Below are positions 39,449 through 48,802 of a stretch of DNA of 64,000 nt, in pieces (the first letter of the stretch is position 1; every line of letters starts with the position of its first letter). The DNA comes from Parcubacteria group bacterium GW2011_GWA2_42_14 (lineage in GTDB: Bacteria > Patescibacteriota > Minisyncoccia > Sungbacterales > GWA2-42-14). The stretch covers positions 6,392 through 70,391 of the forward strand of contig LCCV01000003.1 in assembly GCA_000998135.1 (NCBI GenBank), in the 5' to 3' direction. A model generated the notes under the pieces. The model did not search any database. It was given only the letters and a program-made list of their open reading frames with translations, and was not told where the DNA came from. The translations under genes were made by a program, and so were the position numbers.

Positions 39449-40189
39449 ATGTTAGAAATATCAATTGGGGCGGAAAAAATATTTGAAGTGGCAGGGTTTC
39501 CTATTACTAATACGCTTTTGACGACCTGGATGGTGGTCGGTTTTTTTGTTGTCGTAAGCCAGTTATTGGTTAGGCGGCTTCAGTTGGTTCCGGCCGGCAT
39601 CCAAAGTGTTTTTGAAGCGGTCATTGAAGGGGTGCTCGGCATGATGGACGGTGTTTTGGGAGAGCGGAAAAGGTCAGAAAAATATTTTCCCTTGATCGCA
39701 ACAATCTTTCTTTTTGTCATATCTTCCAATTGGTTCGGTATTTTTCCCGGGTTCGGGTCAATCGGTTTTAATGAAATTTATGAAGGAAATGAAGTGTTTA
39801 TCCCATTTTTTCGGTCCGGGGCGGCAGATCTTAATTTTACTCTTGCTCTTGCCATCATTTCCGTTATTTCGGTGCAGTTTTTGGGAATCGCGGCGATAGG
39901 GTTTTTCAAGCATGCAAAGAAGTATTTCACCTTTAAAAACCCCATTGAAACCTTTGTTGGGCTACTTGAATTTATCTCCGAAATTGCTAAAATGATTTCG
40001 TTCTCGTTTCGGCTGTTTGGGAACGTTTTTGCCGGGGAGGTTCTTCTTATTATAATGGGGTTTTTGGTGCCGTATTTCGTTCCTGTTCCATTCTTGTTTC
40101 TTGAGTTATTTGTCGGTTTTATCCAGGCGCTGGTGTTTGCCATGCTGACGCTTGTGTTTCTCGGCATGGCGGTATCGGAGCATCATTAA
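39449..40189 (+). CDS. atpB: F0F1 ATP synthase subunit a
   Basis: ...RLFGNVFAGEVLL...LELFVGFIQALVFAMLTLVFLG is the C-terminal signature of subunit a. Confidence 0.9.
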   Translation: MLEISIGAEKIFEVAGFPITNTLLTTWMVVGFFVVVSQLLVRRLQLVPAGIQSVFEAVIEGVLGMMDGVLGERKRSEKYFPLIATIFLFVISSNWFGIFPGFGSIGFNEIYEGNEVFIPFFRSGAADLNFTLALAIISVISVQFLGIAAIGFFKHAKKYFTFKNPIETFVGLLEFISEIAKMISFSFRLFGNVFAGEVLLIIMGFLVPYFVPVPFLFLELFVGFIQALVFAMLTLVFLGMAVSEHH

Positions 40190-40190
40190 G

Positions 40191-40260
40191 TTAACCAACA
40201 ACCGATAACCAACAACTCACAACAGGACTGTTGTAAGTTGTAAGTTATAAGTTGTAAGTC
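40191..40260. repeat. 7-nt-periodic palindromic element (acaaccg ataacca acaactc ... gtaagtt gtaagtt ataagtt), paralog of 18583-18659
   Basis: Shares ttaaccaacaac...ctgttgt.agttgt.agttgtaagtt ataagt with the rnc-downstream copy. Confidence 0.8.
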
Positions 40261-40266
40261 AATAAT

Positions 40267-40494
40267 ATGGAGTCAGAATCAATGAAACTTTTGGCAACGG
40301 CCATTGTTATGGCGGTTGGGACCGTCGGTCCGGCGCTTGCCATCGGCATGCTTGCCTCAAAAGGCCTTCAGGCAATAGGTCGGAATCCGGAAGCATCGGG
40401 AAAAATTCAGACGGCGATGATTTTAGCAATTGCTTTTGCCGAGGCCATTGCGATATACGCGCTGGTAGTGGCCCTTATTATAAAGTTTGTGTAG
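40267..40494 (+). CDS. atpE: F0F1 ATP synthase subunit c
   Basis: A two-helix proteolipid: LAIGMLASKGLQAIGRNPEASGKIQTAMILAIAFAEAIAIYALVVALII. Confidence 0.9.
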   Translation: MESESMKLLATAIVMAVGTVGPALAIGMLASKGLQAIGRNPEASGKIQTAMILAIAFAEAIAIYALVVALIIKFV

Positions 40495-41062
40495 AGACAA
40501 GAGACATGAGACAAGAGACATGGAAGTTGAAACATGTCGCATGTCGCATGTCGCATGTCGCATGTCAGAATTAATTCACCAATTTGGCATTGAATGGAAA
40601 ATTCTGGTCGCCCAGATAGTTAATTTTTTTATTTTGCTTGTTATTCTGAAGAAATTCGCGTATGGCCCGATTTTAAATATTTTAAAGGAGCGAAGGAAAA
40701 AAATTGAAGAAGGGCTTTTGGCCGCGGAAGAATCGCAAAAAAAGCTTGGTGAGGCCGAGAAAGAAAAAGAGGGGATTTTGACAGATGCCAGAAAAGAATC
40801 GATCGGTATCATCCAAAAATCGGAAGTAACGGCCAGAGAAAAAGAAAGCCAAATTTTAACCGAGGCAGGCAAAAAAGCCGAAGGAATTTTCGTTGAAGAA
40901 AAAGCAAAAATTCACGAGGAAAAGCTAAAAATGAAAGAAGACATATACAAAGAATTTTCGGTATTTTTGAAAGAAGCATTAGCAAAAATTGTTGAAAAGT
41001 CGCCGCAAGATTTGGACGATAATTTAATACAAGAAACTTTGCGGGAATTGAAGGAAATGTAA
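40487..41062 (+). CDS. atpF: F0F1 ATP synthase subunit b (the annotated N-terminus over-extends through a heptamer repeat; likely start near 40565, MSELIHQF...)
   Basis: A TM helix (ILVAQIVNFFILLVIL) is followed by a long charged coiled coil. The first ~26 codons are encoded by gagacaa / catgtcg repeats. Confidence 0.7.
   Translation: MCRDKRHETRDMEVETCRMSHVACRMSELIHQFGIEWKILVAQIVNFFILLVILKKFAYGPILNILKERRKKIEEGLLAAEESQKKLGEAEKEKEGILTDARKESIGIIQKSEVTAREKESQILTEAGKKAEGIFVEEKAKIHEEKLKMKEDIYKEFSVFLKEALAKIVEKSPQDLDDNLIQETLRELKEM
40494..40567. repeat. heptamer tandem repeats (gagacaa gagacat x2; catgtcg x4) between atpE and atpF
   Basis: 7-nt periodicity. It generates an artefactual N-terminal extension on the atpF ORF. 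Confidence 0.85.
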
Positions 41063-41313
41063 AAAGTGTCATGGAAAATGAAAAACCCGCCAGACGTCTT
41101 AAGGACTTGGCGGGGGCAGAAAGTTGCCAGCTGTTTTCAAGAAGCGACAGAGATATCACGGGAAGTGATATCTCGCAATCCTGCCTGTTCCGAGCAGTGC
41201 CGGGGGAAGCGAGATTGAGGGATAAAAAGTGTTATATGAACAGCAATTCGTGAAGAGCCATACGGTTGGGAAAATTTGTTGGAGCTTTTGTCCGATTCAA
41301 TTAGAATAATGTT

Positions 41314-46759: not shown

Positions 46760-48146
46760 ATGCAAAGTTATGAATGGTAAAATAACACAAATCATCGGTC
46801 CGGTCGTTGATGTGGAATTTCCGGAAGGAGCAAAACTCCCGTTGCTTTTGAATGCGCTCGAAGTCCGACTTCCCGGGGAAGTCGGACTTCAACACATAGT
46901 TTTAGAAGTGGCAAAACACCTTGGCTCGCAAAGGGTTAGGGCTGTTTCTTTGGGTTCTACAGATGGTTTGCGCCGTGATTTGGAAGTAACCGATACCGGT
47001 GCTCCGATTGCTGTTCCGGTTGGCGCCGAAGTTCTTGGCCGGCTTTTTAATGTGTTGGGCAAAACTGTTGATAATAAACCCGAACAGGAGTTTAAGACGC
47101 ATTGGCCGATTCACAGAAAATCTCCGTCGTTTACGGACCAATCAACCAAAACGGAAATTTTTGAAACCGGTATTAAAGTTATTGATTTAATCGCGCCGAT
47201 GGTTAAGGGCGGAAAAGTCGGGCTTTTTGGAGGAGCCGGAGTTGGGAAGACGGTATTGCTTATGGAATTGATCCGCAATGTTTCTGAAGTGGCTAAGGGG
47301 GTTTCTCTTTTTGCCGGAGTGGGAGAGAGGACGCGCGAAGGAAATGATTTATACCGTGAAATGAATGAATCGGGCGTTATTAATAAAACCGCGCTTGTTT
47401 TTGGGCAGATGAATGAGGTGCCGGGCGCGAGGTTGCGCGTTGCCTTGACCGCCTTAACCATGGCCGAATATTTCCGCGACGAAGAATCAAAAGATGTTTT
47501 GTTATTTATTGATAATATTTTCCGTTTTTCGCAGGCCGGCTCCGAGGTCTCAGCTCTTCTTGGCCGTATGCCTTCAGCCGTCGGTTATCAACCGACACTT
47601 GCAACAGAAATGGGAGAGTTGCAGGAGCGCATTACTTCAACAAAGAAGGGCTCAATTACAGCGGTTGAAGCAATTTATGTTCCGGCTGATGATATTACCG
47701 ACCCGGCTCCGGCAACGACTTTTAGCCATCTTGATTCAACGATTGTGTTGTCGCGCCAATTAACCGAGCTTGGAATTTATCCTGCGGTGGACCCCCTGGC
47801 TTCAACTTCAACAGCGCTTGACCCTAAAATCGTCGGGGAGGAACATTATAAAGTTGCCCGGGATGTCCAGAAAATTTTACAGCGTTATAATGAACTTCAG
47901 GATATTATCGCCATTTTGGGAATGGAGGAATTGTCTGAAGCGGATAAGCTAACAGTAAATCGGGCGCGTAAAATTCAACGCTTTTTATCTCAGCCGTTTT
48001 TCGTTGCCGAGACATTCACGGGCCGTTCAGGAAAGTATGTTTCCCGGAAAGATATGATTCAGGGTTTTAAAGAAATTATTGAAGGATTGCATGATGCCAA
48101 GCCGGAAGACGCGTTTTATATGAAAGGAGGAATTAGCGAGGTCTAA
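46749..48146 (+). CDS. atpD: F0F1 ATP synthase subunit beta (likely start at [17 protein letters not shown], ~46770)
   Basis: [18 protein letters not shown] is the Walker A and DELSE is in ...MEELSEADK. Confidence 0.95.
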
Positions 48147-48191
48147 TTTTCAATTTTCAATTTTCAAATACGAAATGACGGCGCGACTTGC

Positions 48192-48222
48192 GAAAAAATA
48201 AAAAGCTGTCACATAGACAGCT
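48192..48222 (-). terminator. rho-independent terminator (minus strand), possibly bidirectional after atpD
   Basis: On the minus strand: agctgtctatgtgacagct followed by ttttatttttt. Confidence 0.7.
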
Positions 48223-48264
48223 ATTAAGCCTCTCGCTTATTTCACCTTTTTTATATTAAATTCC

Positions 48265-48501
48265 TTACGGCCATATCTCGCTGAATTTCCGGCAGTTACC
48301 GCAATAATAACAGCAAGCAGGTTTAGTGAGAAGATAAATTGAAGTTATTGGTTTCATGTTTCCAAGTGTGTTGCATTTAGGACATGAATGCGATGATGGC
48401 TGTGAACGAGAGAGCATTTCCGATATACATGCTATAAGCGTTATAAGCAGCGGACTCGCAATGGCAAAAGTTACAAGAAGAGCGCGAATGAGAACATCCA
48501 T
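48265..48501 (-). CDS. small hydrophobic or Cys-rich hypothetical protein
   Basis: 78-aa ORF with an N-terminal TM segment and a terminator hairpin downstream. Weak. Confidence 0.3.
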   Translation of the reverse strand: MDVLIRALLVTFAIASPLLITLIACISEMLSRSQPSSHSCPKCNTLGNMKPITSIYLLTKPACCYYCGNCRKFSEIWP

Positions 48502-48556
48502 GTTTTACCACTCGGTTAATTAGATATAGGAACTATTAGTAACAATATCTTCTTTT

Positions 48557-48802
48557 ATGAAATTGTCAATTTATAGTTTGCAAAAAACTCTTTTTGAGGG
48601 CGAGGTTGAAAAAATAATCGCCCGCACAACCACGGGCGAAATTACGGTTTTAGACGGGCATATTCCTTTGATTTCTTCTTTAAGGGGGCCGGGTTTAGAA
48701 CTTATTGACAAAAAAGGAAAAAAGGATATAATTAAGATTGACTCTGGTTTTTTGGAAATACGGCCAGAAAGCGAGGTAGTTATACTTGCCGATACCGCAT
48801 AA
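48557..48802 (+). CDS. atpC: F0F1 ATP synthase subunit epsilon (beta-sandwich domain only)
   Basis: MKLSIYSLQKTLFEGEVEKIIARTTTGEITVLDGHIPLISSLRGPGLELI. Confidence 0.8.
   Translation: MKLSIYSLQKTLFEGEVEKIIARTTTGEITVLDGHIPLISSLRGPGLELIDKKGKKDIIKIDSGFLEIRPESEVVILADTA

Follow-up and report, generated by a model that had tools for sequence, protein, structure and literature searches.

How unrelated genes come to lie between the cistrons of an essential, stoichiometry-sensitive enzyme, and what those genes are, is the question raised by the F1Fo ATP synthase operon of an uncultivated Candidatus Sungbacteria (Patescibacteria, or candidate phyla radiation, CPR) of groundwater origin. The bacterium is entered in public databases as Parcubacteria bacterium GW2011_GWA2_42_14 or Candidatus Sungbacteria RIFCSPLOWO2_12_FULL_41, and the operon lies on contig LCCV01000003.1, within the stretch of 64,000 nucleotides (nt) that was analysed and is referred to here as the window. 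The answer that we consider probable is that selfish and accessory DNA has come to settle in the operon, which is itself intact. Two of the interposed genes encode small nucleases and are enclosed by inverted terminal hairpins, which are also found with their relatives in unrelated genomic contexts; further palindromic elements lie in frame within three of the subunit genes.

Layout of the operon

All eight subunit genes (atpB-E-F-H-A-G-D-C) are intact, on one strand and in the canonical order, as seen from the list of open reading frames (ORFs) and from Pfam matches, which cover the a, c, b, delta, alpha, gamma, beta and epsilon subunits. In the alignments, Walker A motifs are found in alpha (GDRQTGKT) and beta (GGAGVGKT). 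Extra DNA is present in five of the seven junctions, and the subunit genes are not contiguous with short spacers: from the start of atpB to the stop of atpC, 3264 of 9354 nt (35%) do not belong to atp genes. The features in order are:

39449-40189, plus strand: atpB, Fo subunit a (PF00119, 149 bits)
40267-40494, plus strand: atpE, c subunit (PF00137)
40562-41062, plus strand: atpF, b subunit (PF00430 on residues 39-152 of the ORF that begins at 40487; 166 amino acids (aa) in the NCBI annotation)
41314-41802, plus strand: NYN/LabA-like protein, 162 aa (PF01936, 41.5 bits against a cut-off of 24.2, E = 2.4e-10; PDB 2QIP, E = 1.8e-6)
41937-42360, plus strand: NUDIX hydrolase pseudogene with one frameshift near 42196-42205
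42416-42784, plus strand: atpH, short delta of 122 aa (PF00213, profile positions 54-168; the atpH of relatives is equally long)
42782-43278, plus strand: GxxExxY unit (left arm 42782-42822, ORF 42831-43247, right arm 43239-43278)
43288-44907, plus strand: atpA, alpha, 539 aa (PF02874, PF00006, PF00306)
44914-45364, plus strand: GIY-YIG unit (left arm 44914-44941, ORF 45049-45336, right arm 45337-45364)
45374-46381, plus strand: atpG, gamma, 335 aa from ATG 45374 (PF00231, 306 bits; the N-terminus agrees with relatives)
46439-46759, plus strand: uncharacterised small protein, 106 aa, with the motif YPDY..YR.YH.LIGS..DFEGEDSVE.F
46770-48146, plus strand: atpD, beta (PF00006 and others)
48265-48501 (unit 48204-48501), minus strand: cysteine-rich ORF of 78 aa with one predicted hydrophobic segment and a zf-LITAF-like match below the cut-off
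48557-48802, plus strand: atpC, epsilon, 81 aa (PF02823)

This order of atp genes and interposed ORFs is the one given in the original prediction. The ORF positions stand, while the starts of three genes were corrected: atpG probably begins at ATG 45374 rather than at GTG 45347, atpD probably at ATG 46770 and atpF near 40562, the part of its ORF upstream of this point being a translated hairpin (see below). The density of insertions, which the original prediction had called unusual, is borne out by comparison with 58 other loci: from the start of atpB to the end of atpD the operon spans 8698 nt, whereas the median of those loci is 6160 nt, and only one of the 58 is longer.

The source being a metagenome-assembled genome, an assembly or binning artefact that joined foreign fragments into the operon might be suspected. 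However, this arrangement, together with the NUDIX frameshift, recurs in each of 10 contigs that were assembled separately (NCBI, ENA, JGI and Logan; different samples), with 99.7-100% identity and 0-20 mismatches per contig alignment to the window (5.5-20 kb), and the inserts are bounded by intact genes on a single, frame-consistent strand. On the strength of this identical layout, an artefact can be excluded for all practical purposes. Base composition is less informative: the junction DNA is poorer in guanine and cytosine (fraction 0.31-0.41) than the atp genes (0.424), but since the poorly conserved atpH is likewise AT-richer, composition is not decisive for a foreign origin.

Turnover of junction contents among relatives

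Relatives were sought with AtpG in a scan of one genome per species (GTDB representatives; best match 54% identity), and their atp genes were mapped by BLAST; intermediate relatives (63-84% AtpG identity) were reached through a protein index and context look-ups. Among the distant relatives, five loci at 43-54% AtpG identity have operons that are contiguous throughout, often followed by a Pro_CA_2 gene, and a sixth is contiguous over the part of the operon that is on its contig. The nearer relatives, by contrast, have occupied junctions with ORFs other than those of the window: L091, L092 and L093 (84% AtpG identity), L097 (68%), L094 and L095 (66%) and L096 (63%). In L091, the nearest, five junctions are occupied by different ORFs, mostly orphans and several of them on the minus strand, and the contents of L097, L094/L095 and L096 differ again from one another. 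Since distant relatives are contiguous and the nearest carry non-homologous ORFs at the same junctions, the inserts are derived and not ancestral conserved components, judging by the sequences compared.

Moreover, the occupation of junctions is a trait of the whole subclade, beyond this one genome. A blastn comparison of the window with L091 aligns the atp genes only (78-91% identity), no junction ORF family is common to the close relatives, and L091 and L092, whose AtpG sequences are identical, differ at the atpD/atpC junction. We conclude that the junctions of the subclade are hot spots, in which one content replaces another far more rapidly than the atp genes themselves change, and do not hold conserved subunits.

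The same comparison bears on whether the inserts could have been recruited to serve the enzyme, with the NYN protein as an RNase and the structure-specific nucleases processing the polycistronic mRNA for subunit stoichiometry, or with the 106-aa protein as an assembly factor. In its favour, NYN domains (PF01936) act as RNases elsewhere, the family of the 106-aa protein shows conservation, and every plus-strand insert points the same way as the operon, which makes co-transcription possible. Against this, no insert gene is found in the operon of any relative, including that with 84% AtpG identity, one insert (NUDIX) is frameshifted, and contiguous operons suffice for most Patescibacteria. Recruitment is thus largely refuted by non-conservation, and we regard it as very improbable.

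Other Patescibacteria have occasional single inserts, mainly at the atpA/atpG and atpG/atpD junctions:

L001: a RelE/HigB-like toxin pair
L035: a 23S_rRNA_IVP four-helix protein between atpG and atpD
L062: MazF and a second ORF
L069: a NUDIX gene
L061 and L067: small ORFs, apparently hydrophobic

Two further observations concern the atpA/atpG junction. In five Verrucomicrobiota loci an ORF of about 174-199 aa lies between atpA and atpG, perhaps an insert that is conserved in the operons of that phylum. In L096 the atpA/atpG spacer (9681-10000, 320 nt) is GC-rich and structured-looking, with no Rfam match.

The GIY-YIG unit

The ORF between atpA and atpG encodes a protein of 95 aa, in which residues 3-77 form a GIY-YIG domain (PF01541, 62.2 bits against 22.6); the nearest solved structure is that of the stand-alone UPF0213 protein BH0048 (PDB 1ZG2). 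The ORF lies between inverted repeats of 34 nt that are 85% complementary. Their arm score of 45 exceeds the maximum of 30 among shuffled sequences, the best of 300 shuffles serving as the comparator for all inserts. An extra inverted arm is present at 44948-44982.

A metagenome scan returned at least 466 relatives of this protein, of which 80, at 60-80% identity, were fetched with their loci. The ORF is intact in every one of them, with lengths of 87-115 aa across the family, and 26 columns are at least 95% conserved among 70 sequences; these include the catalytic residues Y7, Y18, R28, H32 and E65, all of which are present in the window copy. Complete units, with a median length of 346 bp and GTCAT...ATGAC termini, were recognised in 41 of the 80 loci, and follow the pattern 5'-GTCATYCTGAG..GAAGRATC, ORF, GATYCTTC..CTCAGRATGAC-3'. 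The arms are hairpins in their own right: of 221 distinct arms, 196 have a 5-nt stem without any mismatch, where 60.6 would be expected from random pairing, and the stems occur in at least eight covarying versions.

The arms accompany the gene. The GIY-YIG loci contain 284 arms in 375 kb and other loci 10 in 1.30 Mb (0.76 against 0.008 per kb), an enrichment of about 100-fold in loci that were chosen for carrying the gene, and thus not a whole-genome comparison. Arms also occur without it: 136 lie away from any ORF, and adjacent ORF-less pairs are mostly inverted in the +/- sense (36, as against 8 in the -/+ sense and 8 in tandem). The units adjoin 117 Pfam families, among them aminoacyl-tRNA synthetases, ribonucleotide reductase, the ribosomal proteins L3 and L4, topoisomerase and DnaB; no atp genes were found beside relatives of the unit, and no conserved target sequence or target-site duplication is obvious beside the 41 complete units. 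In the predicted RNA fold of the window unit (minimum free energy, MFE, and centroid structures), the arms form a closing stem.

These data can be set against intronless homing, in which the GIY-YIG and PD-(D/E)XK proteins would be free-standing homing endonucleases that cut insert-free atp alleles and are copied in by repair. The arrangement at this locus recalls the free-standing seg and mob genes of phage T4, mostly co-oriented and often promoter-less cassettes that lie between conserved essential genes and are carried on host transcripts (PMC2988022), and the difference in junction contents between strains with near-identical atp genes is also in its favour. However, the diversity of neighbours argues against a single target such as the atp genes, the GIY-YIG protein is a catalytic domain with no recognition domain, and the conserved terminal hairpins are not needed by homing genes. 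We therefore consider homing distinctly unlikely here.

As a separate observation, one metagenome contig of 8.3 kb among the loci examined (L133) carries 28 arm hairpins of the GIY type in 8 kb, tandem arrays included, an extreme local proliferation.

The GxxExxY unit

The second unit fits closely between its host genes: the left arm starts on the stop codon of atpH, and 9 nt separate the end of the right arm from the ATG of atpA. The ORF encodes a PD-(D/E)XK protein of 138 aa (PF13366, PDDEXK_3, 96.3 bits against 22; TIGR04256, 98.1 against 35), and the PD...(D/E)xK core can be read in the translation as TPDIIV...MELKSK. The arms are of an ACGCTGA-repeat type, with a score of 40 against a shuffle maximum of 29, and in the RNA fold they are predicted to close the unit in both the MFE and the centroid structures.

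Its closest homologues, at 69-77% identity, have quite different neighbours: one follows a PNPase gene (locus L180), one precedes a Wzy_C gene (L181) and one adjoins a LAGLIDADG gene (L182). All three copies share the arms, with the consensus ATAGAAGCTGAT..ACGCTGATGAGTACGCTGAT.ATACGCTGAT. Further homologues at 60-66% identity are found in Omnitrophota and Elusimicrobia. A distant copy (L105, 40% identity) has arms of a different sequence, with repeats of a CGGAC type. Within the window, an ORF-less hairpin at 23750-23850 consists of GxxExxY arm sequence with the outer TAGAAGC ends of the unit at the loop, an arrangement which, from its sequence, resembles a right-end/left-end junction of the unit.

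Palindromic elements in subunit genes and spacers

Three subunit genes contain in-frame palindromic insertions, which the original prediction had overlooked:

43663-43761, plus strand: in atpA, 33 codons, with GTCCGCG-type repeat arms
46012-46096, plus strand: in atpG, about 27 codons, a gap in all relatives (z = -7.3)
58548-58632, minus strand: second copy of the atpG element, intergenic
46860-46890, plus strand: in atpD, a perfect palindrome of 15+15 nt in a variable loop

The insertion in atpA separates the N-terminal barrel from the nucleotide-binding domain. It corresponds to a gap of 33 columns in all 13 relatives that cover the region, is likewise absent from L091, L097, L094 and L096, and folds into a hairpin of -53.3 kcal/mol (z = -5.67). 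The two copies of the atpG element are 85% complementary over 85 nt, with a compensatory change from C-G to T-A in the first stem. At the loop occupied by the palindrome in atpD, L091 has an insert of GCGGAC repeats. The in-frame elements are thus palindromic and absent from orthologues, and the host proteins are otherwise intact, as is expected of intragenic palindromic elements.

Hairpins also lie in three spacers in the first part of the operon, of which they fill the first two:

40188-40268: atpB/atpE spacer, arms of degenerate short tandem repeats, AACCAAC / GTTGTAAGT
40490-40570: atpE/atpF spacer, repeat arms GAGACAWG / CATGTCGC (-28.7 kcal/mol, z = -4.64)
41085-41225: cluster of four hairpins after atpF (-56.1 kcal/mol, z = -3.8)

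The atpB/atpE hairpin has a free energy of -23.2 kcal/mol (z = -4.95), and none of 200 shuffled sequences folds as well. That between atpE and atpF is translated as the spurious N-terminus of the long atpF ORF; arms related to it occur at 9183-9212 and 17167-17194. The cluster after atpF is overlapped by an ORF of 60 aa in some annotations, which has no family match and is probably not a gene.

Intergenic hairpins with degenerate tandem-repeat arms of differing sequence are common in the window, for instance at 17792-17873, 18592-18644, 59935-60025 and 60342-60423. A further palindromic region, 49289-49485 (arms 49358-49380 and 49407-49429), lies between the Pro_CA_2 gene that follows atpC and a convergent CorA gene, and has weak, sub-threshold small RNA (sRNA) matches on both strands.

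Inserts without element ends

The four remaining inserts differ from the two nuclease units in that their flanking inverted repeats do not score above shuffled sequences, and none has a homologue in the operons of relatives. The NUDIX gene is a pseudogene: its first frame, 41937-42227, matches PF00293 with 43.5 bits against 21.1 over profile positions 6-61 of 134, and the domain continues in the next frame (42196-42360), as had been proposed. The conceptually repaired protein of 141 aa covers positions 6-120, although no single frame is full-length; by eye, the Nudix box GX5EX7REUXEEXGU is intact.

The 106-aa ORF has 78 distant homologues with a conserved motif, and AlphaFold2 models it as helical with a predicted local distance difference test (pLDDT) score of 88. 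It has no Pfam, NCBIfam or PADLOC match, nothing better than E = 3 was found among PDB folds, and a word-indexed protein search returned the query alone. It belongs to a genuine, uncharacterised family. The minus-strand ORF of 78 aa has its own terminator-like hairpin (48204-48222) and no homologue in the junctions of relatives.

An anti-phage defence island was considered and dropped, there being no defence-type protein matches: PADLOC returned weak generic matches for NYN and NUDIX only, and none for the GIY-YIG, GxxExxY or 106-aa proteins. No paralogues of the insert genes were found elsewhere in the 64 kb, and no other small nuclease-type genes in the precomputed Pfam annotation of window positions 1-56759.

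The original prediction had described the interposed genes as foreign or selfish. Its NYN, NUDIX, PDDEXK_3 and GIY-YIG assignments all score above the Pfam gathering score in the domain searches it had proposed, and its claim of inverted repeats around some inserts is significant for GxxExxY and GIY-YIG. For these two the selfish label is supported by the same ends in unrelated contexts; for the NYN, NUDIX, 106-aa and minus-strand ORFs, a foreign origin is suggested by their absence from relatives. The comparison with the atp operons of relatives, which the original prediction had named as a check, came out in favour of insertion.

A passive explanation was also considered. Weak selection for compactness in a slow-growing symbiont would let junctions grow and random genes collect in them; the repeats would be ordinary hairpins that regulate or terminate the individual genes, and no mobility would be involved. 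This would account for the pseudogene, for the four inserts without element ends, for the orphan ORFs in the junctions of relatives and for the abundance of repeat-armed hairpins in intergenic DNA across the window. It is less easily reconciled with the units: one ORF family is met with the same arms in contexts and phyla that are unrelated, the fetched GIY-YIG ORFs are all intact with conserved catalytic residues, the arms are strongly enriched around these genes and have formed ORF-less inverted doublets, and the inserts of the window are concentrated in this single operon. We judge passive accumulation as an explanation of the whole to be unlikely, if somewhat less so than homing.

The operon as a probable landing zone

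In the explanation that we favour, the two nuclease units would be mobile, probably because each nuclease attacks the hairpin ends of its own unit or sets off copying by recombination. Flanked as they are by conserved atp genes, the junctions could then offer recombination homology, by which their cassettes would be swapped between strains. The NYN, dead NUDIX, 106-aa and minus-strand ORFs would be passengers or decaying cargo and not parts of the ATP synthase.

Several features might explain why so much DNA is tolerated. The plus-strand cassettes are co-oriented and lack strong terminators: a terminator scan found no convincing plus-strand intrinsic terminator inside the operon, the terminator-like sites on that strand being short, weak stems that lie mostly within coding sequence. 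Promoter-like sequences number 24, against 23.4 expected from shuffles, and thus give no indication either way of internal promoters. By analogy with rRNA intervening sequences, the arms may pair into a long stem and the cassette be looped out of the polycistronic RNA, possibly with cleavage by RNase III; an RNase III gene is among those of the window. Such looping-out is suggested by the predicted closing stems, by the architecture of the rRNA intervening sequences and by CPR rRNA insertions with the same ORF families. As the host is a protein-coding operon, excision would not be required for function. The in-frame elements, for their part, would be accommodated in surface loops.

A number of observations weigh against this explanation. 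No pair of empty and filled sites was found for either nuclease unit, so that the exact insertion boundaries, any target duplications and the movement itself are putative. Arms of the GIY type occur at one junction only in this genome, with no sign of ongoing spread, and a DNA-binding domain is missing from the 95-aa protein. The window contains a single copy of the atpA insert, and four of the inserts, as described above, are without element ends. In principle, the conserved arms could be gene-expression signals rather than transposition ends.

If the operon is indeed a landing zone, an operon that is heavily used and sensitive to subunit stoichiometry can be maintained across a natural population with about one third foreign DNA and three subunits padded in frame. 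This bears on the strength of selection for operon compactness in slow-growing, small-genome symbionts.

Neighbouring genes and other observations

Downstream of atpC lies one further gene on the same strand:

48834-49280, plus strand: Pro_CA_2, putative carbonic-anhydrase-like gene (PF20393)

It is found directly 3' of atpC in many Patescibacteria as well (nine loci, among them L091, L096 and L097), which suggests a conserved extension of the operon. Within the operon, atpC matches Pfam in the N-terminal beta-sandwich domain only; as this takes up the entire 81-aa epsilon, a C-terminal helical domain would not fit. The short epsilon and the short delta (OSCP positions 54-168 only) are both common to close relatives.

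Upstream, an ORF of 178 aa (37567-38103), PaaX_M/Cas2-like, lies between two 52-nt copies (37511-38208) that are 90% complementary and each palindromic; in sequence, the pair looks like a pair of operator sites. Gas-vesicle genes (window 294-2588; PF00741, Gas_vesicle, and a GvpL_GvpF protein fused with DnaJ) adjoin ftsZ.

Comparison with known systems

As in the T4-like phages, whose GIY-YIG seg and HNH mob genes were discussed above, small nuclease genes here occupy gaps between conserved genes and vary among close relatives. The differences are considerable: the GIY-YIG protein is a bare 95-aa catalytic domain and carries no DNA-binding domain of the kind that Seg proteins have, while the units possess conserved terminal hairpins and ORF-less derivatives, have no fixed neighbour, and reside in a cellular chromosome, not a phage.

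An architectural parallel is offered by REPIN/RAYT systems (PMC3337134, PMC3116915), in which one small nuclease-type gene lies between two inverted copies of a hairpin. The same hairpins also occur elsewhere as ORF-less inverted doublets, and this holds for both unit families described here. However, the enzyme is a GIY-YIG or PD-(D/E)XK nuclease and not an HUH (Y1) transposase, the arms begin with GTC and not with GTAG or CGTC, and the copy number in this genome is minimal. RAYTs are, in addition, mostly inherited vertically, whereas close GxxExxY homologues are here found across phyla.

GxxExxY proteins have a link to rRNA intervening sequences. The rRNA insertion sequences of CPR bacteria encode GIY-YIG and 23S_rRNA_IVP proteins outside introns (PMC11270868). 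These two families recur in the atp operons, and the inverted ends of the units are likewise predicted to form a long closing stem; the host differs in being a protein-coding operon. Group I and group II introns were dropped as candidates, since no Rfam match reaches the gathering threshold in the window. At E <= 1, positions 39000-49500 gave irrelevant weak sRNA matches only, outside the operon, and the loci of four relatives gave nothing. The window also contains no tRNA genes that could act as integration targets.

The insertions in atpA, atpG and atpD can be compared with Rickettsia palindromic elements, short palindromes that lie in frame in housekeeping genes and add a peptide loop while the protein is kept (PMC10969869), and with intragenic miniature inverted-repeat transposable elements. 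The likeness lies in the in-frame palindromes of the atp genes being absent from orthologues. The sequence families are different, the arms here being degenerate short tandem repeats, and the copies in the 64 kb number two for the atpG element and one for that of atpA.

Taken together, the inserts represent selfish DNA whose kinds are known but whose location is unusual, with the two nuclease units each lacking one defining feature of T4 homing genes and one of REPIN/RAYT systems. In the literature searched, the coverage of which is incomplete, no earlier description of hairpin-bounded GIY-YIG or GxxExxY units was found. We tentatively suggest, as a possibility short of an even chance, that they form a class of ultra-small mobile elements, about 350-500 bp long, that has not been described before. 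In each, the gene of a single-domain, structure-specific nuclease would occupy the loop enclosed by its terminal pair of hairpins, and ORF-less doublets would be non-autonomous offspring. Such elements would have a lifestyle like that of REPIN/RAYT with nucleases other than HUH, would be widespread in CPR and other uncultivated phyla, and would insert into rRNA genes, essential operons and coding loops, made harmless by looping-out at the RNA level. For the two candidate families the termini, lengths, stem covariation and ORF-less derivatives are now defined; they may be the smallest self-contained mobile elements, and their compact structure-specific nucleases, with defined hairpin substrates, could find use as reagents. 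With the same ORF families and a stem-closed architecture now found between protein-coding genes, the rRNA insertions of CPR bacteria appear to be part of a wider phenomenon.

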